64,000 nucleotides of DNA, taken from assembly GCA_049997815.1 (NCBI GenBank), contig JBEKVQ010000002.1:10483-74482 (forward strand), read 5' to 3'. Below, piece by piece: positions 7,638-63,278 of this stretch. A program made the translations under genes and the position numbers. The notes below the pieces were generated by a model. That model was not told the DNA's origin and ran no database searches. It was given only the letters and a program-made list of their open reading frames with translations. Within the stretch, counting starts at the first letter, position 1, and every line of letters starts with the position of its first letter. The DNA is from Minisyncoccia bacterium. Lineage in GTDB: Bacteria > Patescibacteriota > Minisyncoccia > UBA6257 > GWB1-50-10.

Positions 7638-7723
7638 ATATTGACATTTTGGCTAAAAGTGTGGTATAATTTAGCTGGATATTTGGTTAGATTCATATCG
7701 CCCACAACTTATGGAGGTTCCCA

Positions 7724-8065
7724 GTGAGAACCGCAAAACTTGTGATGAGCTTCCTTCTGGCGGTAATCATAGTGTTATTCGCCGCCAACTCGATATTTCG
7801 CGTCGTCAACATTGGCGTGAGCCCACCAAAGAGGGTGAGTCTCGGTAAGATGCTGGTCAATGGACATAACGGCACCCAGTACTGGGTTCTTTATAAAAAA
7901 CCCAATCTGGAGATAAAACTCGGGAGCGAACTCGAGGAAATTATCGGTAACAGCAGGGTTGAGGAGGTTCACTTCGTTCAGGGGCTCGGCTGGATGGGTC
8001 AGCCCATGAAGTTCGAGGCGGTTACCTGGAAGCGGGACAGTGGATTTTCCAGGGTGGGGGTTTAA
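7724..8065 (+). CDS. hypothetical membrane-anchored protein (GTG start after a GGAGG ribosome-binding site)
   Basis: Single N-terminal TM helix; no recognised motif. Confidence 0.35.
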   Translation: MRTAKLVMSFLLAVIIVLFAANSIFRVVNIGVSPPKRVSLGKMLVNGHNGTQYWVLYKKPNLEIKLGSELEEIIGNSRVEEVHFVQGLGWMGQPMKFEAVTWKRDSGFSRVGV

Positions 8066-8120
8066 GCCCCAAGCAAGATTTTGGCGCTCGTGCATTTATT
8101 TGTACGAGCGCTAGCCATTT

Positions 8121-8501
8121 TTGTTCAGCTCTCTTCCGAAATGGGCTATAATGGAACCAATGGCTTTAGCCTATTTGGTCAGGCGATTTTTCTATCGCAT
8201 CATCGATTTTTTGCGCCATTGGTACATCCGGAGCGCGAAGATGTATTCCAACTTCGTTCTGGACCGACTGGCCCGGATCGACCGGGTGCTTGCTTGGCGC
8301 GTGAACCTGAAATATCTTTTTCAGCCGCTCTATCGGGATTACTCCGTCATCGGTTACGTGATGGGTTTCCTTTTGAGGTCATTGAGATTGGCCGGAATTA
8401 GCGTTATCTACCTTTTTATCTTCGCCATAGCCATCTTTGTTTACGTGGTTTGGCTTCTGGCGCCCATTTTCATATTATCCAAGGTTCTGACTGCCAATTA
8501 A
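8121..8501 (+). CDS. hypothetical membrane protein; its stop lies 2 nt before the Clp-like ATPase start
   Basis: C-terminal TM helices; translationally coupled to 8503-11001. Confidence 0.35.
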   Translation: MFSSLPKWAIMEPMALAYLVRRFFYRIIDFLRHWYIRSAKMYSNFVLDRLARIDRVLAWRVNLKYLFQPLYRDYSVIGYVMGFLLRSLRLAGISVIYLFIFAIAIFVYVVWLLAPIFILSKVLTAN

Positions 8502-8502
8502 C

Positions 8503-11001
8503 ATGAACGATCTTTACTTCAAGGAACCGAAATTATCGCTTACCGCCGCCGGAGAATTTTTGGTGCGGCTCGTGACCTACTCCATTTATGCCCTGCTCGT
8601 CGCCTCGGTCGTCGTGCTCTTTCTTTCCGGTGCGGGCCCGCTCCAGTATCTTGCCCTTCTACTCTCGCTTTTCCTCATAGACCGGCTGCTTCACGTTAAC
8701 GATGGAGAGAGGAATCTTTCCGAGATTGGCGGCCGCAACAAAAATCTTTCCGAAGCGGTCGCGCCGGCCGCCTACCGCGCCCTAAGCCGGGCTTTTCGAA
8801 AGTCGTATATCGTCGGCCAGAATCTTCGCCTCCTCTTCTTGGTTGAATTGGCCGACAGAAAGGACGTCCGGGAGATATTGAAGCGGTTGGATGTGAAAGC
8901 GGATGAGTTTCAGAATAAGGCCCTGGAGTTTTTGGAAAGGGAGGGCAATGTTCCGAGTTCAAGCAAGACCGATAACCTGGCGGATGTCGCAAATCTGACC
9001 ATTGCGGCTTACGGAAGCGCCCTAAAGGCGAACGAGAGATTCATCGAGCCGAGAAATTTCCTTTCGGCGCTCGCCTCCACCGATGATCCGATCCTGAAAA
9101 CCTTCTTCAATCTTTTCAACCTGGAAGAAAAAGACATCCAAGCCGCGAGCGTTTTTGGCCGTTTTCGCCGTCTCTTCGGCCACCTCCGATTTTTGCCGGC
9201 GGTTCTCGGGGGGTTCGCTCAACAACCGAGATTCCTTCGGCATCGGGTGATGAACCGCGCCTGGACGGCCCGGCCAACCCCGACCTTGGACCAATTCAGC
9301 CGGGATCTCACCGATCTGGCGAGAGAAGAAAGGATAGGATTTTTGGTGGGACACGAGGATGAATTCAACGAACTGATCCAGGTTATCTCCCGTCCCGGCA
9401 AGCCCAATGTAATCCTGGTCGGCGAACCGGGAGCCGGCAAATCGTCCATCGTCGCTCATCTCGCCTTCCGAATGGTTAAAGACGAAGTCCCGCCGGTTCT
9501 TTTTGATAAGCGCTTGGTATCCCTGGAAATAAACCGGCTCGTCTCGAACGCCACGGGCGACGTTCTCTCCGGACGCCTTCAAAAAATAACCGAAGAAATT
9601 TTGAAAGCGGGGAACATCGTTCTTTTCATTCCCAATATGCACGACCTCTTCCGGACCGCCGAAGAGCAATCCTTAAATGCGATAGACATCATATTCCCCG
9701 TGGTGAAGGAAAACGCCATACCGGTCATAGGCGAAACCTATCCCAAGGAATTCAAAGAATTCATCGAACCGCGCTCGGATTTCATGGAACAGTTCGAGGT
9801 GGTGAACGTGAACGAGGTCTCGGAGGAAGATGCCGTGAAGTTTCTTACTTACGAGGGCCTGATACTGGAGCAGGAGTTCGGGGTGTTCATCACTTATCGC
9901 GCCATTCGGGAGGCGGTCGTTTTGGCTCACCGCTATCTTCGCACGAGGCCGCTGCCGGGAAGCGCCACCAATCTTTTGAAGATGGCCCTGACCGAGATGA
10001 AGGAAAACAAGGATAAGATCTTGAACGCCGATGACGTCGCCGCCGTGGCCGAGAAGCTCACTAAGATACCCATCCAAAAAGCCGGAAAACCGGAGGTCAA
10101 AAAATTACTGAATCTCGAGCAGGACATCCACGAGAAGTTCGTAGATCAAGACGTAGCGGTGCGTTCGGTTTCGCAGGCCCTTCGGGAATACCGGAGCGGA
10201 CTTACGCGGCAGGGCGGACCCATCGCCTCATTCCTCTTTGTCGGTCCCACGGGCGTCGGTAAAACGGAGTTGGCCAAAATTTTGGCCCAGATCCAGTTTG
10301 GTTCAAAGGATGCGATGGAGCGCTTCGATATGTCGGAGTACCAGGATAAGACCAGCGTCTTTCGGCTCATCGGCAATCCGGACGGTTCGAGAACCGGTTC
10401 CTTGACCGACGCGGTCATCGCGAAGCCGTTCTCTCTGGTATTGCTGGACGAGTTTGAAAAAGCCCATCCGGATATCCTGAATATCTTCCTTCAGGTTTTG
10501 GATGATGGGCGGCTTACCGACAGCCTGAATCGGACCGTGAACTTCGAGAATACCATTATTATTGCCACCTCGAACGCCCACTCCGAGTTCATAAAAGTGG
10601 AGACGGAAAAGGGACGGCCCGGCGAGGAAATAGCGGACGATCTCAAGAAGAAACTAACCGATTACTTCAAGCCGGAGCTTCTGAACCGCTTCTCGGATGT
10701 TATCGTCTTTCGGAATTTGAAGCCGGAAGAGATCGCCTCGGTGACGGTCTTTATGATGAAGGAGCTGGCGGGACTGCTCTCCGAAACCAACGGCATAGAA
10801 TTCTCCTGGGACGAGGCGGTTGTGGGCGAACTGGTCCGACTCGGCTACAGTCCGGTCTTCGGAGCGCGCCCGCTCCGGCAGACCATATCCGATGCGATTC
10901 GCAGCGTTCTTGCGGAAAAGATACTGAAGGAAGAGATAAAAAGAGGGGATAAGGTTCGCGCGGTTTTTGAAGGCGGAAAATTCGGGTTCAAGACCGGATA
11001 A
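8503..11001 (+). CDS. membrane-anchored Hsp100/Clp-family AAA+ ATPase (ClpC/ClpB-like paralogue; D1 Walker B degenerate)
   Basis: N-terminal two hydrophobic helices, then Clp_N-like repeats. D1 Walker A GEPGAGKS, but D1 Walker B reads FIPNMH instead of FIDE(L/I)H. D2 has [10 protein letters not shown] and LVLLDEFEKAH. No IGF/LGF ClpP-docking tripeptide seen. Confidence 0.75.
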   Translation: MNDLYFKEPKLSLTAAGEFLVRLVTYSIYALLVASVVVLFLSGAGPLQYLALLLSLFLIDRLLHVNDGERNLSEIGGRNKNLSEAVAPAAYRALSRAFRKSYIVGQNLRLLFLVELADRKDVREILKRLDVKADEFQNKALEFLEREGNVPSSSKTDNLADVANLTIAAYGSALKANERFIEPRNFLSALASTDDPILKTFFNLFNLEEKDIQAASVFGRFRRLFGHLRFLPAVLGGFAQQPRFLRHRVMNRAWTARPTPTLDQFSRDLTDLAREERIGFLVGHEDEFNELIQVISRPGKPNVILVGEPGAGKSSIVAHLAFRMVKDEVPPVLFDKRLVSLEINRLVSNATGDVLSGRLQKITEEILKAGNIVLFIPNMHDLFRTAEEQSLNAIDIIFPVVKENAIPVIGETYPKEFKEFIEPRSDFMEQFEVVNVNEVSEEDAVKFLTYEGLILEQEFGVFITYRAIREAVVLAHRYLRTRPLPGSATNLLKMALTEMKENKDKILNADDVAAVAEKLTKIPIQKAGKPEVKKLLNLEQDIHEKFVDQDVAVRSVSQALREYRSGLTRQGGPIASFLFVGPTGVGKTELAKILAQIQFGSKDAMERFDMSEYQDKTSVFRLIGNPDGSRTGSLTDAVIAKPFSLVLLDEFEKAHPDILNIFLQVLDDGRLTDSLNRTVNFENTIIIATSNAHSEFIKVETEKGRPGEEIADDLKKKLTDYFKPELLNRFSDVIVFRNLKPEEIASVTVFMMKELAGLLSETNGIEFSWDEAVVGELVRLGYSPVFGARPLRQTISDAIRSVLAEKILKEEIKRGDKVRAVFEGGKFGFKTG

Positions 11002-11019: not shown

Positions 11020-11691
11020 ATGAGATTCAGCGTCAATGTAAATTTTAATCTCAGGGACCTTAAGGTGAACCGGCTCATTCGGTTCTTTGTGATATCCGAC
11101 CTTTTCTTCTGGAGCGGGTGGGGACTCTTAACGCCCATCTTCGCCATCTTCATAATCGACCGCATCCCGGGGGCCTCGGTACTTACGGTCGGTATCGCCT
11201 CGGCCGTTTACTGGGTGGTCAAGGCGTTATTCCAGATGCCGGTAGCCCTCTATTTGGACAAGCATGAGGGGGAGCGGGATGATTTCCATGCGCTCGTCTC
11301 CGGCTTGATTTTGGGCGGAATAACGGCCTTCTCGTTCTTGCTTGTGGATAGCGCGGCCGGTTTGTACTTCGTCGTATTTCTCCAGGCCCTGGCTTTCGGT
11401 TTGTACACGCCGGCCTGGTCAGCGATTTTTTCCCGACATCTGGACAAGAAGAACTATGCCTTCGATTGGTCGCTCGACAACACCGTAATAGGCCTGGCCT
11501 TGGGCATAACCGCATTTCTCGGCGCCGCCCTGGCCGACGTCTTCGGCTTTGAGGCCATATTCGTCGTTACCGGAGTACTGTCCTTCATAAGCGCGCTGAT
11601 ACTCATCTTTGTTCCCGATCTGATACTGCCGGAAGTTAAGAGCGAGTCGGCGATAATCCAAGACCATAAACCGGCCAATATTGGAAAATGA
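11020..11691 (+). CDS. half-size MFS-like membrane transporter
   Basis: Six hydrophobic helices resembling a single MFS repeat; overlaps the next gene. Confidence 0.4.
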   Translation: MRFSVNVNFNLRDLKVNRLIRFFVISDLFFWSGWGLLTPIFAIFIIDRIPGASVLTVGIASAVYWVVKALFQMPVALYLDKHEGERDDFHALVSGLILGGITAFSFLLVDSAAGLYFVVFLQALAFGLYTPAWSAIFSRHLDKKNYAFDWSLDNTVIGLALGITAFLGAALADVFGFEAIFVVTGVLSFISALILIFVPDLILPEVKSESAIIQDHKPANIGK

Positions 11692-12173
11692 ATCCGTCAC
11701 CGAACAGGGAGATATCCGCGGGCGTCATAATCTACCGCCGTACGGGCGAGGGACCCAAGTTCCTGATACTTTACAACGGAGGCCCGTACTGGAACTTTCC
11801 GAAGGGAAAGCTGGCCGAAGGAGAACGGAGTTTCCGGGCGGCGCTTCGGGAGGTCTGGGAAGAGACCGGCTTGAGTTTCCGCGACCTCAAGTTTTCCGAA
11901 AGATTCAAGGTTGAAGACAACTTCGTTTATGTGAGGAACAAGCAAAAGATATACAAGACCGTCACTTACTATCTGGCCGAAACTGGGAATCCCTACGTCC
12001 GGCTGAAGATAAAGCCAGAGAGCGTTCCCGGGGAGAAGCATCAGGGCTATGGCTGGTTCCTGTACCGGGATGCCATGCGGATTTTGAAGGCCCCAAATCT
12101 GAGGAATAGTTTGAAAAAGGCCCACGACCTCGTCTCCAACAGGAAAAGTTTCCCGCCTAGCCAGAAAAAATAA
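11688..12173 (+). CDS. NUDIX hydrolase
   Basis: Nudix box GKLAEGERSFRAALREVWEETGL. Confidence 0.75.
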   Translation: MNPSPNREISAGVIIYRRTGEGPKFLILYNGGPYWNFPKGKLAEGERSFRAALREVWEETGLSFRDLKFSERFKVEDNFVYVRNKQKIYKTVTYYLAETGNPYVRLKIKPESVPGEKHQGYGWFLYRDAMRILKAPNLRNSLKKAHDLVSNRKSFPPSQKK

Positions 12174-14846: not shown

Positions 14847-16010
14847 CTAATATGTCCGGCTGAAAGCTCTTTTCTGTTTGCCGGACTTATGGGTATACCC
14901 GATTACGGTGAAGCGCTTCTTTGAAAATGGCGACCTCTTGATCTTGTACCCGAAAATATCGGAATTTTCGCAATGTACTAGGCCGATTACGCTGTCGTCG
15001 ACCGCCACTCCCTGTCTCGACTCGAAGTATCTTCTGTCCTGACCTTCCGGCGGAAGAATAATCTCTGCTGCTACGCGGCCATCTGGTAGGAACTTAACAT
15101 GTGTGACGGTATCGAACCTGTTTTCCCATAGCTTACCATCAACTGCGACGGTTTCAGTTCTAGAACCAAGTTTCTCGACAGAAACGGGGATTGCGACCCT
15201 GCCATTCTCATCAAACGCCATCCAGAATCCATCGACGGTAACGAAATCCGTTCCCCATGCCTTGCCATCAACAGCGATCGTCCATCGCGGCTTCAATCCT
15301 CGCTGCTGGATACTCAGACTTGTCGTGAGCGGAACCACGCATTTGCCGTTCGGGGTAAAATGCGGCTGGAATATTTGCTGATTGTTTATGTATGCGTGAT
15401 TAGCACACAGCATAAATGAGTCTGACGCACTGTCGCCGCTATAACGTTCCGGCACCAGGCAAGCCAATGAATCCCATGGTTTATCATCAGCGACAACCAC
15501 CACTTTTCTGTCTCGGATCACGGTGACTGCCAGTCTTCGGCTGTCTGGACTGAATTTGGGAGTTCTCCAATAAAACTCCTCATCGAATGAGGTTCCCCAC
15601 AATTCGTCGTTGACGGCGATCCTAAACTTGCCATTCTCCTTGACAACAGCAGCTAAGCGATTGCCATCGGGGCTTAGTGTAAGAATGTACACCTTGTCGA
15701 ACCAATGGCTCCATGGTCGGGCACCCTCCATAACAATCGTTTCTTTAATCATTCCATCGTTCTCGATCGCTCCATCATGCTCATCAAACTTCGCCTTAAT
15801 GACAGCGACCAATCTTCTTGTCAGTTGATTTGGACATATGCCGTAGTATTGTGCGTCTACCATTTGATATCTTACTCCCTCAAAAAGGTGGCCGCTGCAC
15901 ATATCCTCAAGACAAATTCCTCCTATGGCGATCGATCGATGCAATACCACCTCGGGATTAGATTTCCGGTAAAGATGGTAATCAACCGTATCCTGCCGTT
16001 TCGATTTCAC
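14847..16010 (-). CDS. WG-repeat-containing protein (in an AT-rich islet)
   Basis: Repeated AVDGKAWGT / AVNDELWGT / AVDGKLWEN units spaced about 40-60 aa apart. The gene and both flanks are visibly AT-rich. Confidence 0.55.
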   Translation of the reverse strand: MKSKRQDTVDYHLYRKSNPEVVLHRSIAIGGICLEDMCSGHLFEGVRYQMVDAQYYGICPNQLTRRLVAVIKAKFDEHDGAIENDGMIKETIVMEGARPWSHWFDKVYILTLSPDGNRLAAVVKENGKFRIAVNDELWGTSFDEEFYWRTPKFSPDSRRLAVTVIRDRKVVVVADDKPWDSLACLVPERYSGDSASDSFMLCANHAYINNQQIFQPHFTPNGKCVVPLTTSLSIQQRGLKPRWTIAVDGKAWGTDFVTVDGFWMAFDENGRVAIPVSVEKLGSRTETVAVDGKLWENRFDTVTHVKFLPDGRVAAEIILPPEGQDRRYFESRQGVAVDDSVIGLVHCENSDIFGYKIKRSPFSKKRFTVIGYTHKSGKQKRAFSRTY

Positions 16011-20712: not shown

Positions 20713-23700
20713 ATGTTAAAGAAACTGGATAAATTTTCCCTTCCGGAGATAGAGGAAAAAGTTCTGGAATTTTGGAAAACCGACAAAATCTTCGAAAAAT
20801 CTTTGACCAAGCGGGCCAAGGGCAAGAAATTCGTCTTCTACGAGGGCCCGCCGTCGGCGAATGCCCGGCCGGGCTTTCATCATATTCTCGCCCGTGTTTT
20901 CAAGGACGCCATTCCGCGCTTCAAGACAATGCGGGGTTTCTACGTGGCGCGGAGGGCCGGGTGGGATACCCATGGGCTTCCGATCGAGGTGCAGACGGAG
21001 AAAACGCTTGGTTTTAAGAACAAGCAGGACATCGAGCATTACGGAATAGCCAAGTTTAACCAGAAGTGCCGGGAGCTCGTCTGGCTCTACAAGGACGAAT
21101 GGGAAAAATTGACCGAGCGGATGGGCTTTTGGATAGACCTCAAAAGTCCCTATATTACCTACGAAAATTCTTACATCGAATCCGTCTGGAACATCCTAAA
21201 ACACGTCTGGGACAAGAAACTTTTGTATGAGGGCCACAAGGTGGTGCCGTGGTGTCCGCGGTGCGGAACGGGGCTTTCTTCGCATGAGTTGGCGCTGGGA
21301 TATAAGGAGGTCACGGATACATCCGTTTACATAAAATTCAAACTGAAACCGGGACAGAAATTCGGCAAATACACGGCGAAGGACTCGGCTTACATTCTGT
21401 CTTGGACGACAACCCCGTGGACCCTGCCGGGGAATATCGCGCTCGCAGTGGGAGAAAAAATCCCCTACACCGCGCTTCGCGTGAGGGGGACGAAAGAGCT
21501 CTATATTCTTGCGAGTGAGCTTATAAAAACCGTTTTTAAAGACCAAGAAATTGAGATCGTGCATGAAGACATAAAAGGCAAGGATCTGATCGATCTTGAA
21601 TACGAACCGCTTTTCGACATTCCGGCGCTGAGATCAAAAACATCGTACAGGATTTATAATGCGAAGTTCGTGACGACGACTGATGGCACGGGCGTGGTGC
21701 ACACGGCCGTGATGTACGGCGAGGACGACTACAATCTCGGAAAGGAAGTCGGCTTGCCGCAAGTCCACACGGTGGATGAGCAGGGAAGGTTCACGAAAGA
21801 CGTGAAGGGATTTGCCGGAATGTTCGTGAAGGCGAAAGAGACGGAGGATAAGGTAATTGAATATTTGAAATCCAGAAATCTTCTCTTGAGAACCGAGCCC
21901 TATAAGCATGAGTATCCCTTTTGCTGGCGTTGCGGTACCCCGCTTTTGTACTATGCCCGCGATTCATGGTTCATTTCGATGTCGAAGCTCCGCGCGCAGC
22001 TTCTCGCGGCGAACAATAAGGTCAACTGGATACCGGAAAATATCAAGGACGGTCGCTTCGGCGAATGGCTGAAAGACGTGAAAGATTGGGCCATCTCCCG
22101 AGAGCGCTACTGGGGTACGCCGTTGCCCATCTGGGTCTGCGAAAAGTGCGGGCACAAGAAATGCATCGGAAGCATTGCGGAATTGGAGGAAGGCCGGAAG
22201 AAGAGCTCGAACCGCTATATATTAGTGCGTCACGGTGAAGCGGAGAACAACCTGGAAAATATCATTGACCACGTCTTCGAGAAATCCCGCTCCAATCTCA
22301 CGCTTAAGGGACATACCCAGATTGATAGGCTGGGCAAGAAGTTTTCAAAAGAGAAGATAGACGCTATTTTTGCCTCGGATTTTCCGCGCACTAAGCAGAC
22401 GGCCGACATTTTGGCCTCGGCCTTGGGGGTAAAAAAAGTAAATCTCGACAAGCGATTAAGAGAAGCCGATCTGGGAATTTTGGAAGGTCACCAGGCATAC
22501 GAATATCACAAGTTTTATCCGGACGACATGGAAAAATTTGCGAACCCGCCGGAGGGTGGAGAGAGCCTGAATCAATTGAGAGGACGCCTTAATGATTTTA
22601 TAGAAGAAAGAGAAAAAGAGTTTTCCGGAAAGACCATCTTAGTCGTGAGCCATGAATACCCAATTTGGATGTTTGCGAGCATTCTCGAGGGTTGGGGCAA
22701 CCGCGAGGCGGTCGAGGAAAAACATCGGCGCGGAGAGGATTTTATAGACAGAGGCGAGGCGCAGGAATACCGCTTTCATAATTTGCCGAGAAATGACAAC
22801 GGTGAGATGGATATTCACCGCCCCTATTTGGATGATATAAAATTCGTCTGTGGAAAGTGCGGCGGAAAGATGGAACGCGTGAAAGAGGTGATTGATGTAT
22901 GGTTCGACTCCGGCGCGATGCCGTTCGCGCAGGACCACTGGCCGTTCTCCAAAGACCGAAAGCTGGATTATCCGGCGGACTTTATCTCCGAGGCGATGGA
23001 CCAGACCCGCGGCTGGTTCTACACTCTCCTCGCCATAGGCGTTCTAATGGGTAAAAACAGCCCCTACAGGAACGTTATCTGCCTGGGACTCATATTGGAT
23101 AAGAACGGCCAAAAGATGTCCAAATCCAAGGGAAACGTCGTGGACCCGTGGGAGATGATGAAGAAGCATGGCGTAGACGCCATCCGCTGGTACTTTTATA
23201 CCGTTAATCCGCCGGGCGAACCGAAGAAGTTCGACGAACTCGAACTTACAAAAACCTCCCGTCAGCTCTTCTCTTTGCTTTATAACTCGTTCGTATTTTT
23301 CGAAACATACAAAAGTAAGAATTCAAAATTCAAAATTCAAAATTTGAAATTCACGAACGTGCTGGATAAATGGATTTTGAGTCGCCTGAACGAAACGATT
23401 GATGTAGCCACTAAGAGATTGAATGAATATGCAATCGGAGATGCGGGGCGGGTGATGGAGAATTTCATCGGCGACCTTTCACGGTGGTATATCCGCCGTT
23501 CCCGGAGGCGTTTTCAGAAGCCGGATGATGGGAAGGATTACGCGGCGGCCTCAAGCGTGCTGGGCTATGTGCTTTTGGAAACGAGCAAGCTCATGGCGCC
23601 TCTTGCCCCGTTCTTTGCCGAAGCGCTCTATAAGTCGCTCTCAGATGACGAGTCCGTCCATCTGGCCGATTGGCCGAAGGTGGATAAGAAACTCGTGGAG

Positions 23701-24207
23701 AGAAAGCTCTCCGCAGCGATGGAAGAAGTGAGGGGTATCGCAAGCGCGGTTCTCTCGAAGCGGGCCGAGGTTGGGATTAAGGTTCGCCAGCCGCTTCAGA
23801 CGCTAAAAATCAAGGATATTAAATTAAAAATACAGAAAGAATTGCTAGGTATCCTAAAGGACGAGGTAAACGTGAAAGATGTGAAGTTCGATGCCAAGCT
23901 AAAGACCGACTTCGAGCTGGATACCCGGATAACCCACGAACTCAAAGAGGAGGGAATTCTGCGGGAGCTTATCCGCACCATTCAAGACCTACGCCAGGAT
24001 GCGAAGATGAAACCGCAGGACATCGTTCTACTTTTTCTTGACGGTCCCGATGAATTGAAAATGATTGTCTCAAAGTTCGGCGAGCTCTTAAAGAAAGAGG
24101 TGAAAGCGAAGAGAATCGAATTAGGAAAGCCGCCCAGATTTGATGCGGAGATTGAAACTAGGATAGAAGAAATGCCGGTTTGGGTGGGGATTAAAAAGGC
24201 GAACTAG
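20713..24207 (+). CDS. ileS: isoleucyl-tRNA synthetase carrying an inserted histidine-phosphatase (PGAM-like) domain of about 205 aa
   Basis: WTTTPWTLPGN, KMSKSKGN and the zinc knuckles CEKCGH / CGKCGG are all present. Between them (aa 495-700 or so; nt 22195-22809) sits RYILVRHGEAENN...LKGHTQIDRLG...SDFPRTKQTA...ILVVSHEYPIWM, which looks like a complete RHG/His phosphatase fold. Total 1164 aa. Confidence 0.9.
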   Translation: MLKKLDKFSLPEIEEKVLEFWKTDKIFEKSLTKRAKGKKFVFYEGPPSANARPGFHHILARVFKDAIPRFKTMRGFYVARRAGWDTHGLPIEVQTEKTLGFKNKQDIEHYGIAKFNQKCRELVWLYKDEWEKLTERMGFWIDLKSPYITYENSYIESVWNILKHVWDKKLLYEGHKVVPWCPRCGTGLSSHELALGYKEVTDTSVYIKFKLKPGQKFGKYTAKDSAYILSWTTTPWTLPGNIALAVGEKIPYTALRVRGTKELYILASELIKTVFKDQEIEIVHEDIKGKDLIDLEYEPLFDIPALRSKTSYRIYNAKFVTTTDGTGVVHTAVMYGEDDYNLGKEVGLPQVHTVDEQGRFTKDVKGFAGMFVKAKETEDKVIEYLKSRNLLLRTEPYKHEYPFCWRCGTPLLYYARDSWFISMSKLRAQLLAANNKVNWIPENIKDGRFGEWLKDVKDWAISRERYWGTPLPIWVCEKCGHKKCIGSIAELEEGRKKSSNRYILVRHGEAENNLENIIDHVFEKSRSNLTLKGHTQIDRLGKKFSKEKIDAIFASDFPRTKQTADILASALGVKKVNLDKRLREADLGILEGHQAYEYHKFYPDDMEKFANPPEGGESLNQLRGRLNDFIEEREKEFSGKTILVVSHEYPIWMFASILEGWGNREAVEEKHRRGEDFIDRGEAQEYRFHNLPRNDNGEMDIHRPYLDDIKFVCGKCGGKMERVKEVIDVWFDSGAMPFAQDHWPFSKDRKLDYPADFISEAMDQTRGWFYTLLAIGVLMGKNSPYRNVICLGLILDKNGQKMSKSKGNVVDPWEMMKKHGVDAIRWYFYTVNPPGEPKKFDELELTKTSRQLFSLLYNSFVFFETYKSKNSKFKIQNLKFTNVLDKWILSRLNETIDVATKRLNEYAIGDAGRVMENFIGDLSRWYIRRSRRRFQKPDDGKDYAAASSVLGYVLLETSKLMAPLAPFFAEALYKSLSDDESVHLADWPKVDKKLVERKLSAAMEEVRGIASAVLSKRAEVGIKVRQPLQTLKIKDIKLKIQKELLGILKDEVNVKDVKFDAKLKTDFELDTRITHELKEEGILRELIRTIQDLRQDAKMKPQDIVLLFLDGPDELKMIVSKFGELLKKEVKAKRIELGKPPRFDAEIETRIEEMPVWVGIKKAN

Positions 24208-45562: not shown

Positions 45563-46759
45563 CTACTTAGTGGTGTTATAGATGGCTTGGATCTCGGCGG
45601 CGGAGAGAGCGCGGTTGTAGATGCGGACGTCGTCGATAACTCCACTACCAAAGTCATCCCCTTTCCCAAAAAGAAGAGAACTTGTACTTGTATCAGTGAC
45701 ATATACCTGGGTACCGCTCGCTTTGAGCATTCCATTTAAATACCACGACCATATTGATCCTGAATAAGTAATGGTAAGAAAATTCCAAGATGTGGTGACT
45801 AAATTTGCCGCAGATGGACTAATATTATCTCTTTTATAGAGTATAGTACCGTTACTTATATAAAAAATTAAATATCCTTGCCCAGCAACACCCGAGTTCC
45901 CTTTGACAAGAATACCTGGATAACTGCCGATCAGTGTTATTTCCTTATACCAAAGCGAGATTGTAAAATCGGAATTTAATCGAAGGGTCAAGTTATCGGG
46001 AACGGACACATAATCATCCGTCCCATCGAAATTCCCCGCCTGTCCAATCTTGCCTCCCGTATAGTAGGAACCGTTGGTCAGAGAGCCATACCACGTCCCA
46101 TTGTTTCCGTTCCCAGATGAGTCATTGGGAGAGCCATCCAAAGGCCAGTAACCCACAAGTCCAGAGGTATTGAATAATGGTGATAAGGAAAGATTAGAAC
46201 CATAGGCTATGACTCCAGGCATATTCTGTATGGGAGGGTTGATCTGGAGGGCGGCCCGCTGTTTCTGTGATTCAGGAATAGCCGTCAGTTCCCAAGAGCC
46301 TCCTGATGTGTAGGTGTAGTACTGTCCGCTTGAGGTGGTATTTATGGGATCAATGGGAAGCCTGGAGAGAGGACTTCCGGATGAGATGAGGGTGAAGTTC
46401 ACAGGGATCCATCCTGTGCCGTCGACTCTCGAGGAGGAGGCGGTGGAAACGCAGGCGTATGCCCAGCCTGAAGGCAATGCGGGAAGGCCTAAGTTCGCAC
46501 AGGTAGGTGACGTGTCCGGAACTGACACATAGGTCGTTGAGGCGGTTCCGAGGGATTGGTTGTACTGGTCGACCTGGAAGAGATTGAGGGCACTGTTCAA
46601 GGACGCCAGATCGGAGAGACGAGTGGAGTCTCTAGCTTCTTTGAGGAGCTCAGCAGGATTGATGACGAGGATGACGGCGGTAGCCAAGACTCCGAGGATG
46701 GCTATCACTACCAGGAGCTCTATGAGGGTGAAGGAGGACTCGTTACGCCAGCTTGTCAT
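45563..46759 (-). CDS. type IV pilin-like protein with a C-terminal LamG/concanavalin-like domain
   Basis: N-terminal prepilin motif FTLIELLVVIAILGVLA. The C-terminal about 200 aa have a LamG-like pattern (...WYLNGML...DDVRIYNRALSAAEI). Confidence 0.7.
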   Translation of the reverse strand: MTSWRNESSFTLIELLVVIAILGVLATAVILVINPAELLKEARDSTRLSDLASLNSALNLFQVDQYNQSLGTASTTYVSVPDTSPTCANLGLPALPSGWAYACVSTASSSRVDGTGWIPVNFTLISSGSPLSRLPIDPINTTSSGQYYTYTSGGSWELTAIPESQKQRAALQINPPIQNMPGVIAYGSNLSLSPLFNTSGLVGYWPLDGSPNDSSGNGNNGTWYGSLTNGSYYTGGKIGQAGNFDGTDDYVSVPDNLTLRLNSDFTISLWYKEITLIGSYPGILVKGNSGVAGQGYLIFYISNGTILYKRDNISPSAANLVTTSWNFLTITYSGSIWSWYLNGMLKASGTQVYVTDTSTSSLLFGKGDDFGSGVIDDVRIYNRALSAAEIQAIYNTTK

Positions 46760-52117: not shown

Positions 52118-53794
52118 GTGGATAATAAGAAAATAAAAAGAAACTTATTACGCACTCTATTCATTGTCGGTCTATTGGCAATCGGCATTTTCATTTTCTT
52201 TCGGCCGATGATTTTGTCCGGCTTCCGATATTCCCAGCAGGATACCGGCGACTCCGTATTTAACAATCTCCTTCTCGAGCATTCTTTTCAGGTCGTTTTC
52301 AATCACTCGTATCTTGGTACCGCATGGTCCCCGATATTTTACTATCCCCAGGGAAATGTTTTGGCGTACTCCGATAATTTGTGGGGCAGTGCGCCGATTT
52401 ATTGGCTCGCCAGGGCTTTTTTCACTCCTGAGACGGCATTTCAAATCTGGATGATTGTTGTTGCCATCTTAAATTTTTTCGCCTTTTATCTTTTGGCACG
52501 GAGCTTGAAAATGAATACTTGGTTTTCCGGTTTTGGTTCGTTTCTTTTCGCTTTTTGCCTGCCCCGTTTGGGGCAAATAGGACATCAGCAGCTTTTGCCC
52601 CAATTCTATTCGGCACTCGCCCTGTTCTTTCTGTTCAAGTTCATTCAGGAGAAAAAGTTCAAACACTTTTTGTTTTTTGAGATCTGTGTTTATCTTCAGG
52701 TCCTGGCTGGTATATATTTGGGCTGGTTTCTCCTACTCTCCTTGCCCGTTTTAATTCTCGTCGGCAAACTTTTCTACAAAGATAAGTTCTCCCTTAGACC
52801 GTTTTTGGATTACAGAATATTGATATCGGTTCTAGTATTTTTTGCCGTTTTGGCGGTTACCCTTTCCCCTTATTATTCCGCGCAAAAAGAAATCGGCCCA
52901 CGTTCCTATAGCGAGGTGGAGACACTGATTCCCGGCGTTCGCTCTTACGTGAATATCGCTTCAACCAGCATTTTGTACAATCTCTATCCGCCACAATTGG
53001 AAACTGCGACACAGAACATTCCGGTGAGATACGAGAATTATTTATTTTTGGGATTCTTCGTTTACTTTTTACTTTTGGTCTCCATTGTCGGGTTCGTTCT
53101 TATCCGTAGAAAATATCCGGATAAAACTTTCTGGCCGCCATCTTTCGTCGTCGGCTTCACACTCTTCGCCATCATTACGCTCATATCCCTGCGAATACCT
53201 TTCACCGATTACAGCTTTTGGGTGAACGTTTATAAATTCGTTCCCGGCGCCGGAGCCATCCGCGCGGTGATTAGGGCTTGGACCATCTCTTATCTGTTTC
53301 TATTTCTGGCAATCATGGGTTTGGCTTCCTTGGTTTATTCGAGATCCTCATCAAGGATTTTCAAGGTGCTTCTGGTGGCAATCGGATTGATTGCCTGTCT
53401 TGAACAAATAGATATCAACCCCCGTTATTTTGATCTGGCTAAAGAGCGGGTAATCCAGACCCAGATAGAACAGGCGGTCTCCGCGGCGGTGCGGGAAAAC
53501 AAGATAGATGCCTTTTATCTGCGGTGGGGCGAGAATCAATGGTTCTTTGACTACGAATTGAAAGCGATGTGGGCTAGTATGGATCTGAACGTTCCCACCA
53601 TTGACGGTTATACCGGAAATCTTCCCATGGGATATAAGAGCCTGGTTGATACACTTAGCGACCGCGACATCAGCGACTGGCTGAGGTTTAAAGGTGTGAC
53701 CCCGCTGTCCCGGAAAATACTAATCCTTGATTCCTCGGTTAACGGAGAGGAATTTACGATAGATAAAGCAGAGATTTTGTCTCTGCCCTTTTAG
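52118..53794 (+). CDS. large polytopic membrane protein, possibly a GT-C-type glycosyltransferase partner of the preceding GT2
   Basis: More than 10 TM helices in the N-terminal 400 aa and a soluble C-terminal domain. The functional call is from gene context only. Confidence 0.35.
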   Translation: MDNKKIKRNLLRTLFIVGLLAIGIFIFFRPMILSGFRYSQQDTGDSVFNNLLLEHSFQVVFNHSYLGTAWSPIFYYPQGNVLAYSDNLWGSAPIYWLARAFFTPETAFQIWMIVVAILNFFAFYLLARSLKMNTWFSGFGSFLFAFCLPRLGQIGHQQLLPQFYSALALFFLFKFIQEKKFKHFLFFEICVYLQVLAGIYLGWFLLLSLPVLILVGKLFYKDKFSLRPFLDYRILISVLVFFAVLAVTLSPYYSAQKEIGPRSYSEVETLIPGVRSYVNIASTSILYNLYPPQLETATQNIPVRYENYLFLGFFVYFLLLVSIVGFVLIRRKYPDKTFWPPSFVVGFTLFAIITLISLRIPFTDYSFWVNVYKFVPGAGAIRAVIRAWTISYLFLFLAIMGLASLVYSRSSSRIFKVLLVAIGLIACLEQIDINPRYFDLAKERVIQTQIEQAVSAAVRENKIDAFYLRWGENQWFFDYELKAMWASMDLNVPTIDGYTGNLPMGYKSLVDTLSDRDISDWLRFKGVTPLSRKILILDSSVNGEEFTIDKAEILSLPF

Positions 53795-60611: not shown

Positions 60612-63278
60612 ATGCCGAATTTCCAACGTTTCACCATTAAGGCCCAGGAGGCGCTCCAGAACGCCCAAGAGTCGGTGGCCCGGTACAATCACGGGGAATT
60701 GAAAGCCCTCCATCTTTTGTCCGCGCTTTTAAGCGACGAGCAGACGCTCGTGCGGCCCCTTCTCGTGCGCTCGAACGTTAACGTCTCCGAGTTGGAACGT
60801 GCGACATCGGAAGCGCTCCAGAATTTTCCCAAGATATTCGCGGCTGGCGGCGTCGGCCAACTTTATCTTTCCCAGGAACTGATGAAGATTTTGGATAAGG
60901 CAGGCGAGATAGCGCTCAAATTCAAAGATGAATTCATCTCATGCGAACATTTACTCATGGCGCTTCTGGATGTCCCATCGTCGGCTCAGGAGCTTTTGAA
61001 CCGCTTCGGAGCGCGGAGGGAGGTTTTGGGACGAACGCTTGCTCAGCTTCGCGGTTCGGTCCGGGTTACGGACGAGACTCCGGAGAGCAAGTTCCAAGTT
61101 CTTGAGAAGTATGCGGTGAATCTCACCCAAAAAGCGCGGGATGGGAAACTGGACCCGGTCATCGGCCGCGAGGATGAACTCCGGCGCCTGATGCAGATAC
61201 TCTCCAGGCGGACGAAAAATAATCCAGTTCTCATTGGTGAACCGGGCGTGGGAAAGACCGCTATTGTGGAGGGCCTAGCCCAGAAGATAATTGCGGGCGA
61301 TATTCCCGAAACGCTCAAGAACAAGGAGGTTGTAATGCTCGACATTGGCTCTCTCGTCGCCGGCACCAAGTTCCGCGGAGAGTTTGAGGACCGCTTCAAG
61401 GCGTTTCTGAAAGAAGTTCAAAATTCGGAGGGGAAGATAATCCTTTTCATTGACGAAATTCATATGATAGTCGGAGCGGGCCAAGCCGAGGGCGCAATTG
61501 ATGCGGCAAACATGCTGAAGCCGGCCCTGGCGCGCGGCGAGCTTCATGCGATTGGCGCAACCACGCTCAAGGAATATCAAAAATACATCGAGAAGGATGC
61601 GGCCTTGGAGCGCCGTTTCCAACCGATCTTGGTTGAAGAGCCGACGGTGGAGGACTCCATCTCCATTCTCCGCGGGCTCAAGGAAAAATACGAAATGCAT
61701 CACGGTTTGAAGATTACGGATAACGCGATAATCGCAGCCGTGAATTTGGGCGCGCGCTATATTACGGATAGATTCTTGCCGGACAAGGCCGTGGACCTGA
61801 TAGACGAGGCGGCCGCGGCGAGGCGATTGGAATCGGATAGCTTGCCGCGCGAGATAGAGAAGGTTAGGAAGGAAATTACCCAGCTTGAGGTGGAAAAATC
61901 CGCCCTGATGAAGGAATCAAAAGGACAGCCCGGTAAGAAGAGCGTGAAAAAATCTCCGCGACTCAAGGAGGTGGAAAAAGAATTGAAGGGTTTGAAAGAA
62001 AGGAATGATGAACTCTCCGCCCAGTGGCAGGGAGAAAAAATCGGAGTGGAGAATCTCCATGACCTGCGGCGGGAGATAGAGGACTTGAAGCGAGCGGCCG
62101 AAGTGGCCGAGCGAGAGGGGAACTTCGACCGCGTGGCACAGATCCGCTACGGCGAGCTTCCCAAATCCGAAAAACGTTATTCTGATCTGGAGAAGAAGTA
62201 CGAAAACAAAACGAAGGCCAAGAAAAGCGCCGGCGGACATTTCATAAAAGAAACGGTGGATGAGGAAGACATTGCGGCCGTAGTTTCCCGGTGGACCGGG
62301 ATTCCGATGTCGCGGATGCTTGAATCCGAAATGAATAAATTATCCCGCATTGAAGAGGCCCTGGAGGAGCGAGTGGTCGGCCAAAAAGAAGCGATTGAGG
62401 CAGTTGCCAGAGCTCTTAGGCGCTCGCGCGCTGGCCTGGCTGACGAAGACCGCCCATCGGGCTCGTTCATGTTCCTGGGTCCCACGGGCGTAGGCAAGAC
62501 CGAGCTCGCCAGGGCTTTGGCCGAGTTCATGTTCAACGACGAAAAAGCGCTCGTGCGGATAGACATGTCCGAATACATGGAACGGCATGCGGTTTCGCGC
62601 CTAATAGGGTCCCCGCCCGGCTACGTCGGCCACGAAGAAGGCGGCCAGCTCACCGAGATAATCCGCCACCGGCCTTACAGCCTGATACTTTTTGATGAAA
62701 TTGAAAAAGCCCACCCCGAAGTGTTCAATATCCTTCTTCAGATGCTCGACAACGGTCGGCTCACCGATTCCAAGGGCAAGGTGGTGAATTTCAAGAATGC
62801 GGTCATCATTCTCACGTCGAATGTCGGAAGTGATTACTTCCGCGAGATGTCCGGTTTGGGTTTCAATTCCGGAAAGAGTGAGGAAGAATTTCAGAATAAG
62901 GAGGAAAAGTTCCGCGACCAGGTGATGGGAGCACTCCGCGATACCTTCCGTCCGGAATTTTTGAACCGCTTGGACGAAACGATCATATTCAACTCGCTCA
63001 CTCCGGCGGTGGTGGAAAAGATAGTGGATATCCAGCTCGAGGAGGTGAAAAAACGTCTGGCCGAGAAGGGGATGACCCTGAATATCCGGGCTGAGGTCAA
63101 GAAGTATCTGGTTCAAAACGGCTTTGATCCGGATTTCGGCGCCCGACCGGTAAAACGCCTCATCCAAAAAGTGATTGTGGACGCTCTGGCCGATAAAATA
63201 GTCCGGGGTTCGCTCAAAGATGGTCAAAAAATTAACGTCGTTCTTACGAAAGACAACCGGGTGGAAATTGCCCGCTAA
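60612..63278 (+). CDS. clpB: chaperone ClpB (Hsp100 disaggregase)
   Basis: Clp_N repeats; D1 has [15 protein letters not shown] and FIDEIH; a long coiled-coil M-domain; D2 has [11 protein letters not shown] and LFDEIEKAH. No ClpP-docking loop. Confidence 0.9.

Follow-up and report, generated by a model that had tools for sequence, protein, structure and literature searches.

The stretch of DNA analyzed here (the window, 64,000 nucleotides) comes from a Minisyncoccia bacterium (GenBank assembly GCA_049997815.1, contig JBEKVQ010000002.1, positions 10,483 to 74,482 of the forward strand). At 8503..11001 (+), it encodes a Clp/Hsp100 paralogue of 832 residues with a predicted transmembrane (TM) anchor, as seen in the open reading frame (ORF) listing, the Pfam matches, the homologues, and an AlphaFold model. 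A small gene at 8160..8501 (+), referred to below as the partner gene, lies directly upstream and codes for a putative membrane protein of 113 residues from ATG 8160 or 116 residues from ATG 8151. On sequence comparison, the two genes are predicted to form a two-gene membrane module, composed of a tail-anchor-like protein of ~114 residues and a membrane-anchored Hsp100 and retained in much of the Patescibacteria (Paceibacteria/Minisyncoccia-type lineages). A preliminary description of this DNA had picked out the ATPase as a second Hsp100 besides a canonical ClpB. The latter was confirmed at 60612..63278 (+), where it scores 1213 bits on TIGR03346, just under the cut-off of 1232.

The partner gene is predicted to open a new transcription unit, because an intrinsic-terminator-like hairpin at 8081..8114 (+; 14 pairs followed by a T-run) closes the preceding one. 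Read from the sequence, the partner stop codon (TAA, 8499-8501) is separated by a single base from the ATG of the Clp paralogue at 8503. The start had been placed 2 nt after the partner, with co-translation implied; the spacing has to be corrected to one base, and co-translation is more safely read as operon membership with probable translational coupling. A terminator scan found no convincing terminator between the Clp paralogue and the next two genes. The longest mechanical form of the partner ORF in the ORF listing starts at a TTG (8121..8501, 126 aa). This form is probably over-extended, since homologues are 113–117 aa long and, for the identical protein, NCBI and JGI call the gene from either ATG 8160 (MALAY) or ATG 8151, three codons earlier. 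The earlier claim of a 126-residue upstream membrane protein thus holds for the gene, whereas the length is more likely 113–116 residues. A TATAAT hexamer (8147-8152) is found in the sequence ahead of the partner gene. It lies 7 nt ahead of the likely ATG 8160 and overlaps the alternative ATG 8151. As no Shine-Dalgarno-like sequence was seen when the region ahead of ATG 8160 was read, this short gap means that the partner transcript may be leaderless. The promoter scan reported no full −35/−10 pair around 8147..8162.

The Clp paralogue appears, from its sequence, to be derived from a ClpB/ClpC-type ancestor. Its best relatives in the Protein Data Bank (PDB) are ClpB, ClpC, and ClpE, and the closest match to its second ATPase module (D2) is the D2 of T. 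thermophilus ClpB (E 2e-82). By the features that define them, however, it is not a ClpB, a ClpA/C/E, or a ClpV, and it lacks both an active first ATPase module and aromatic pore loops, which are otherwise general in the Clp/Hsp100 superfamily. The scores on the NCBIfam models are 477.8 bits for ClpB (TIGR03346, cut-off 1232.1), 420.1 bits for ClpA (TIGR02639, cut-off 993.15), and 383.3 bits for ClpV (TIGR03345, cut-off 884.95). An identity as ClpV/TssH was considered and rejected: the protein is below the TIGR03345 cut-off, and the neighboring genes are of housekeeping type (MurB, L20, IF3, NUDIX), not those of a type VI secretion system. Full-text literature searches returned no description of a membrane-anchored bacterial Clp/Hsp100, of Clp proteins in Patescibacteria, or of this TM-Clp family. 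The sequences are public under the generic name “ATP-dependent Clp protease ATP-binding subunit”, which is misleading.

A search with the full protein gave 949 scored homologues. The best 120 of these are all ~830 aa long, cover 97–100 % of the query, and come from Patescibacteria-type metagenome-assembled genomes (Minisyncoccia, Paceibacterota, and Jorgensen-, Brenner-, Wolfe-, and Colwellbacteria). The N-terminal 290 residues, which are family-specific, retrieve 232 clusters at 50 % identity, and two family-specific peptide patterns retrieve at least 224 species-representative Patescibacteria genomes. The phylogenetic distribution, proposed earlier as a check, is thus a wide one for the TM-Clp and its partner. 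For the family statistics, 127 full-length members were used: the query, 77 species loci, and 49 representatives of distant clusters. Mean pairwise identity differs by segment: it is 0.67 for the D2 large subdomain, 0.48 for the first ATPase module (D1), 0.45 for the linker, 0.30 for the hairpin, and 0.27 for the N-domain. Some distant members (P0284, at L083:2039-4450, and P0289) have additional hydrophobic helices ahead of Clp_N, together with a zinc ribbon of the DnaJ type (CxxCxGxG) at the N-terminus.

The N-terminal hydrophobic helical hairpin (8557..8697, +) spans residues 19–65, with the turn SGAGP and an invariant D60-R61 at the end of helix 2. In the hydropathy plot, this is the sole strongly hydrophobic stretch of the 832-residue protein. 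AlphaFold places the two helices at residues 15–41 and 45–63 with a predicted local distance difference test (pLDDT) score of about 90. Almost all family members (123/127) have an N-terminal 19-residue window with a Kyte–Doolittle hydropathy of ≥1.6. Across the family, lysine and arginine residues number 2.9 in the N-terminal tail, 0.43 in the hairpin loop, and 4.6 after helix 2. This distribution of charges fits a predicted N-in/C-in topology, which a cytoplasmic ATPase requires anyway. Residues 1–65 are conserved in ~830-aa homologues that align at 97–100 % coverage, and the start codon abuts the partner stop. The hydrophobic N-terminus pointed out earlier is therefore genuine and not a product of a mis-called start. 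On the suggested check of TM topology, hydropathy, the AlphaFold helices, and the positive-inside charges all fit a hairpin of two spanning helices, but the insertion may also be monotopic.

The AlphaFold model was built on 69 homologues and has a mean pLDDT of 79.8 and a predicted template modeling (pTM) score of 0.69. Its best matches in Foldseek are ClpC and ClpB hexamer chains. After the hairpin, the order of elements is a short tether, an all-helical N-domain (residues 82–226), a low-confidence segment (residues 228–255), and two AAA+ tiers. AlphaFold, the family profile, and hhalign delimit a divergent double-repeat N-domain of the Clp_N type at 8746..9147 (+; residues 82–215). Pfam does not detect Clp_N (PF02861) on the single sequence of the paralogue. 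The family profile of this domain, however, matches the N-domains of ClpC (2y1q, E 2.5e-11) and ClpA (1k6k, E 3.8e-10), and hhalign gives a probability of 91 % against the N-domain of the window's own ClpB. On these profile matches, we assign the N-domain as a divergent Clp_N domain. The Clp_N repeats named in the preliminary description are therefore upheld at the level of the family profile and not at that of a single-sequence Pfam search.

A highly conserved basic linker follows at 9148..9288 (+; residues 216–262), with the sequence ...RFLRHRVMNRAWTARPTPTLDQF. Residues N251, R252, W254, T255, P258, and T259 are invariant. The low AlphaFold confidence over residues 228–255 coincides with this conserved basic stretch, which may be an interaction segment. 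We take the TPTLD end of the linker to be the only part it has in common with ClpC. Neither the hairpin nor the linker has a match in Pfam or PHROGs.

The D1 module and its lid are encoded at 9289..10017 (+; residues 263–505). Motifs were compared by alignment to the window's ClpB and to T. thermophilus ClpB. The Walker A motif (9421-9444) is kept, with GEPGAGKS in place of GEPGVGKT in ClpB. The Walker B motif (9625-9642) is degenerate and reads FIPNMH instead of FIDEIH. The arginine fingers are replaced (MEQF versus ERRF), the sensor-2 region reads LPGSA versus LPDKA, and the pore loop reads T-GDVLSG versus KFRGEFE, so that the tyrosine is gone. In Pfam, D1 has only P-loop-level matches and AAA_lid_9. 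The D-E pair of Walker B is kept in none of the 127 family members (the positions read PN in 48, PD in 44, and PE in 10), and neither is the arginine-finger RR pair (0/127). The replaced, inactive D1 Walker B noted earlier thus holds for the whole family. The Lys-Ser/Thr of the D1 P-loop is present in 69/127 members and lost in about 45 %. An aromatic residue in the D1 pore-loop window is found in 9/127. The P-loop lysine is followed by Glu or Asp (GKE/GKD) in 31/127 members; such a P-loop may be self-occupied, as is typical of pseudo-ATPases.

Judged by these motifs, D1 is predicted to be unable to hydrolyze ATP, and in many members it is probably unable even to bind Mg-ATP. Because every catalytic element is lost, and the P-loop Ser/Thr as well in ~45 % of members, D1 is predicted to be a structural tier only, which scaffolds the hexamer. 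The paralogue also lacks the M-domain: the alignment to the window's ClpB has a gap of about 137 aa at this place, in agreement with the earlier statement that no coiled coil of M-domain length is present. There can therefore be no coupling to DnaK through an M-domain.

The D2 module and the D2-small domain are encoded at 10147..10998 (+; residues 549–832). In this case the catalytic motifs are intact. Walker A (10243-10266) is GPTGVGKT, identical to ClpB, and Walker B (10441-10458) is LLDEFE, within LLDEFEKAH (LFDEIEKAH in ClpB). Sensor 1 reads ATSNA (LTSNV in ClpB), the arginine finger R729 sits in the same LNR motif as in ClpB, and sensor 2 reads GARPLRQ (GARPVKR in ClpB). All five elements are nearly invariant across the family, with GARPLR invariant or nearly so. 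This agrees with the earlier view that D2 is intact. Pfam recognizes AAA_2 (PF07724, 175 bits) and ClpB_D2-small (PF10431, 63.9 bits) in the C-terminal half. Since D2 has lost no catalytic residue and no other part of the protein is as well conserved, it is predicted to be the only motor ring. The ClpP-docking tripeptide [ILVM]G[FL], looked for between sensor 1 and the arginine finger, occurs in 0/127 members, and the reported lack of a ClpP-docking loop is thus a property of the family.

The D2 pore loop is truncated and non-aromatic (IGNPDGSRTGSLT, 10369-10407, +). Aligned to ClpB, it reads GNPDG----SRTG, and the ClpB-type GYVG(H) tip is deleted. The loop is 4–6 residues shorter, the remaining tip residues vary across the family, and an aromatic residue is present in the window of the loop in 4/127 members. 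The aromatic grip is thus predicted to be missing from both rings, a feature that had gone unremarked before. To our knowledge, an aromatic-hydrophobic pore loop is retained in every well-studied AAA+ unfoldase that threads its substrates. With both aromatic pore loops lost, processive threading is therefore unlikely, though possible. In Clp/Hsp100 proteins, threading depends on aromatic pore loops (PMC5425593). The membrane hairpin, the dead D1, and the lost pore loops all appear from these statistics to be family traits and not peculiarities of one genome. Two outcomes had been named beforehand as speaking against the anchored, single-motor description, namely a mis-called start and a D1 that keeps its catalytic residues; by the alignments, neither is found.

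The partner belongs to a family of 285 clusters, in which every hit listed is 111–150 aa long and most are 112–120 aa. The named homologues among the matches listed are all called “hypothetical protein”. The partner has no match in Pfam or NCBIfam and a single marginal match in PHROGs (E 0.0086), and its family profile has no match in the PDB at E ≤ 10. The N-terminal helix is basic-aromatic and strongly amphipathic (hydrophobic moment, µH, of 0.65 for residues 7–24). The conserved motifs are F..(R/H)HWY and PLY.DYS..GY..GF..R..R, and the invariant residues are F17, W21, Y22, D41, P56, G65, R73, and W98. Toward the C-terminus, arginines lead into one uncharged stretch (median length, 31 residues). 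This layout suggests a tail-anchor-like protein with an N-in topology. AlphaFold models the partner alone as a single long helix with a pTM of 0.36, too poor for a fold search.

We examined 80 related species loci. The partner gene is directly upstream of the Clp gene and on the same strand in 78/78 evaluable loci; in the remaining two, no more than ~250 nt of contig is left ahead of the Clp gene. In 73 of the 78, the spacing from partner stop to Clp start codon falls between −17 and +23 nt, and in 13 loci the two genes overlap by 4 nt. The proposed coupling to an upstream membrane-protein gene is therefore well borne out. Two very distant Clp members, with N-terminal regions 24–30 % identical, also have a Pfam-less gene of 112–118 aa located 2–3 nt upstream. 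These genes match the partner profile with E values of 3e-27 and 6e-16. One of the two distant members is a zinc-ribbon protein with extra TM helices, and P0284 has its partner 2 nt upstream. The other neighbors of the two are unrelated (PPIase, LytR_cpsA_psr, Mur ligase). Because the distant members keep the partner while the other neighbors differ, the pair can be regarded as the conserved unit. No fusion of partner and ATPase, and no other architecture of the partner, is present among the hits listed.

Downstream of the Clp paralogue, by 18 nt and in the same operon, lies a gene for a half-size membrane protein of the MFS type (11020..11691, +; 223 aa, 6 TM helices). Half-size MFS proteins are uncommon and must oligomerize to function. 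The gene is found directly downstream in 56 of the 80 related loci, and also in a Jorgensenbacteria locus with different upstream genes. It is absent from the distant loci L083–L085. As it is kept in related loci but not in distant ones, the half-MFS would be a lineage-specific accessory and not a core part. A NUDIX hydrolase gene (11688..12173, +) overlaps the MFS stop by 4 nt and is downstream in 64/80 loci. Its position probably reflects synteny, with no functional link shown. Several other genes were considered as a third core partner and rejected on their frequency in the loci: MurB (upstream in 31/80), an MJ0043_C-type gene (upstream in 5/80), an F420-ligase-type gene (1/80), and an LCP gene (0/80). 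A defense island or mobile element was also rejected, as the pair is in a syntenic housekeeping neighborhood in all species.

Some further features of the window were noted. An orphan ORF at 7724..8065 (+; 113 aa, one N-terminal TM helix) precedes the terminator-like hairpin; it has no match in Pfam or NCBIfam and no homologue in the 80 related loci. Ahead of it, at 7641-7670 (+), is a perfect sigma-70 consensus promoter (TTGACA, 18 nt, TG-TATAAT). The canonical ClpB has the sequence SGLGFNSG at the D2 position of the ClpP-docking tripeptide of ClpC/ClpA, and an LGF-type loop together with an M-domain would be odd. A class-I tRNA synthetase of 1164 aa (20713..24207, +) is IleRS-like (tRNA-synt_1 and Anticodon_1) and has a complete His_Phos_1 domain (PF00300, 125 bits) inserted at residues 503–665, inside the catalytic domain, which is unusual. 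Of the three ORFs at 45563..46759 (−), 52118..53794 (+), and 14847..16010 (−), one encodes a pilin-like protein that has a Laminin_G_3 domain and, at its N-terminus, a methylation motif; the other two are of considerable size (558 and 387 aa) and have no Pfam match.

The arrangement of the domains suggests that the hairpin holds the N-domain/D1 face of the ring, which is the substrate-entry face, against the cytoplasmic side of the membrane. The reading we favor, of which we are about half persuaded, is that of a non-threading, D2-driven membrane remodeler or switch that acts on or through the partner. The ring would not thread polypeptides processively. Instead of pulling a chain through the pore, ATP turnover in D2 would drive a conformational cycle. 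The rigid D1 tier would pass this cycle on to the basic linker and the N-domain, and from there it would reach the parts embedded in the membrane, that is, 12 hairpin helices per hexamer and the helices of the partner. In this way the partner, or a client attached by way of it, would be assembled, taken apart, or gated. The small protein itself would be a dedicated membrane-resident adaptor, regulator, or substrate, in a role like that of ClpS, MecA, Pex15/26, or LAP1. A D1 that serves as a structural tier has precedents in the D2 of NSF and the D1 of Pex1/6. In mechanism, the nearest analogues of such a machine would be Torsin with LAP1/LULL1, a precedent for working without threading, and Pex1/6 with the tail-anchored Pex15/26; in the geometry of anchoring, they would be FtsH and Msp1.

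Several points weigh against the remodeler. The loss of the pore loops is negative evidence only, and a substrate might still be held by other residues that line the pore. Helix 2 of the hairpin has only 14–18 apolar residues, and the insertion may be monotopic (non-spanning) instead of bilayer-spanning. The contact between partner and ATPase is predicted from genomic coupling (78/78 loci and the distant loci); in the mirror-tree and partial-correlation analysis, the partner behaves similarly toward each Clp segment (partial r 0.3–0.5), and none is singled out. D2 keeps its own arginine finger, unlike Torsin, so that activation by a cofactor would not be required. The zinc ribbon of DnaJ binds polypeptides, and the DnaJ-type ribbon in the rare distant variants hints at polypeptide clients and a role in quality control.

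The last point belongs to the extraction or unfolding of membrane proteins, which was the job proposed in the preliminary description. Here the D2 motor would pull clients, possibly including the partner, through the central pore, in the manner of Msp1/ATAD1 or the ATPase portion of FtsH. The membrane-tethered N-domain/D1 entry face, the fully competent D2, and the distant zinc-ribbon variants are in line with this, as is the separate cytosolic ClpB in the genome, which implies a distinct job for the paralogue. However, neither ring has an aromatic pore loop, that of D2 being 4–6 residues shorter with a variable tip, while well-studied threading AAA+ unfoldases keep such loops (for Clp/Hsp100, PMC5425593). 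A ClpP-docking loop and a protease domain are also missing. The membrane tether and the single motor ring of the earlier proposal therefore stand, whereas the job itself is put in doubt by the absence of both aromatic pore loops, and we regard extraction as possible, on the unlikely side. A role for the ATPase as the energizing or regulatory subunit of small-molecule or lipid transport with the half-MFS, in an ATP-gated or ATP-assembled transporter, is improbable. The 6-TM MFS gene is indeed 18 nt downstream, is directly adjacent in 56/80 loci, is present too in the Jorgensenbacteria locus with different upstream genes, and encodes a protein that would have to oligomerize to function. However, 24/80 loci and the distant L083–L085 lack it beside the pair, whereas the partner is always present. 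We know of no precedent for an MFS transporter driven by an Hsp100, which also counts against this reading.

That the protein is a membrane-localized unfoldase subunit of a Clp protease (ClpC/ClpA-like) we consider very improbable. The generic database names, the ClpA-like layout without an M-domain, and the TPTLD linker, which is presumably ClpC-like, would agree with it. Set against these are the absence of the ClpP tripeptide (0/127), the scores far under the ClpA and ClpB cut-offs, and the lack of pore loops. It is scarcely credible that the gene is a paralogue in decay without a function, or that it has been wrongly annotated, for example through a mis-called start that gave rise to a false hydrophobic N-terminus. 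D1 is degenerate and its P-loop is drifting (KE/KD in 31/127). Yet the protein is conserved over its full length in 232 clusters (50 % identity) and no fewer than 224 species genomes, and the catalytic residues of D2 are invariant. Conservation includes the first 65 residues, and the start lies right next to the partner stop. The genomes are also small, with complete or near-complete contigs of 0.6–0.8 Mb. The non-threading, D2-driven remodeler thus remains the reading we prefer.

Strong conservation in hundreds of species with very small, streamlined genomes means that the function is probably important and lineage-specific. The ultra-small, host-dependent Patescibacteria are thought to depend on lipids acquired from outside. 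We tentatively suggest, though we think it doubtful, that the module is a membrane-embedded Hsp100 switch, in which a D2 ring on a pseudo-ATPase D1 cyclically remodels an assembly of hairpins and tail-anchored cofactors. It would be a prokaryotic counterpart of Torsin-LAP1 and Pex1/6-Pex15 and would serve a lineage-defining membrane function, for example the biogenesis or maintenance of the membrane or envelope. Hsp100/Clp proteins are textbook soluble threading machines. The present family departs from this in being membrane-integral, in having a pseudo-ATPase ring and no aromatic pore loops, and in its obligate, undescribed membrane partner. It offers a tractable bacterial model for non-threading Clp-derived ATPases, where the same question is open for the disease-linked Torsins, and a concrete, testable candidate for the largely obscure membrane biology of the Patescibacteria. 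The name “Clp protease ATP-binding subunit” should not spread to other genomes.

Among known systems, ClpB shares with the paralogue the two-tier AAA+ layout, Clp_N, D2-small, the most similar D2, and the absence of a ClpP loop. The paralogue differs from it in having no M-domain, a dead D1, neither pore-loop tyrosine, and a membrane anchor. ClpC, ClpA, and ClpE are alike in overall length and in their short or absent M-domain; they also provide the best profile match of the N-domain, and ClpC hexamers are the top structural match. Unlike these, the paralogue has no ClpP tripeptide, a dead D1, no aromatic pore loops, and a TM hairpin. In E. coli, the small gene clpS is immediately upstream of clpA. 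The present locus likewise has a gene of ~110 aa directly upstream of a Clp ATPase gene, although its product is a membrane protein without similarity to ClpS or MecA.

FtsH has two TM helices per subunit. In FtsH and Msp1/ATAD1, as predicted here, an N-terminal membrane anchor sets a hexameric ATPase ring at the cytoplasmic face. Theirs is a single classical-AAA ring with aromatic pore loops, and FtsH carries a protease domain in addition; neither Pfam nor NCBIfam detects a peptidase domain (including M41) in the Clp paralogue. Msp1, a membrane-anchored AAA+ protein, is described in PMC12793716.

Torsins are Clp/Hsp100-related, membrane-associated proteins without aromatic pore loops, and transmembrane cofactors control their activity (PMC5425593). 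Torsin-LAP1/LULL1 thus resembles the present pair in its kinship to the Clp/Hsp100 D2, the N-terminal hydrophobic segment, the absence of aromatic pore loops, and the dedicated transmembrane cofactors. Torsins, on the other hand, form a single ring, have no arginine finger of their own, and are luminal, whereas the paralogue keeps R729 and sensor 2, has a D1 tier and Clp_N, and is paired with a partner that is not AAA-like. A specific relationship between its D2 and Torsins was rejected, as no Torsin chain is among the PDB matches at E ≤ 1e-3. The likeness to Torsins would therefore be one of analogy only. Pex1/6, with Pex15/Pex26, and NSF are type-II AAA+ proteins in which one ring is degenerate and structural and the other is the motor. 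They belong to the classical AAA clade, are not membrane-integral, and keep aromatic pore loops in the active ring, so that the homology extends to the AAA+ fold only. Pex15 and Pex26 are tail-anchored and bind the N-domain of the ATPase at the membrane. Compared by description only, Pex1/6-Pex15/26 and the present module would be alike in the combination of one degenerate and one motor ring, a site at the membrane, and a tail-anchored partner.

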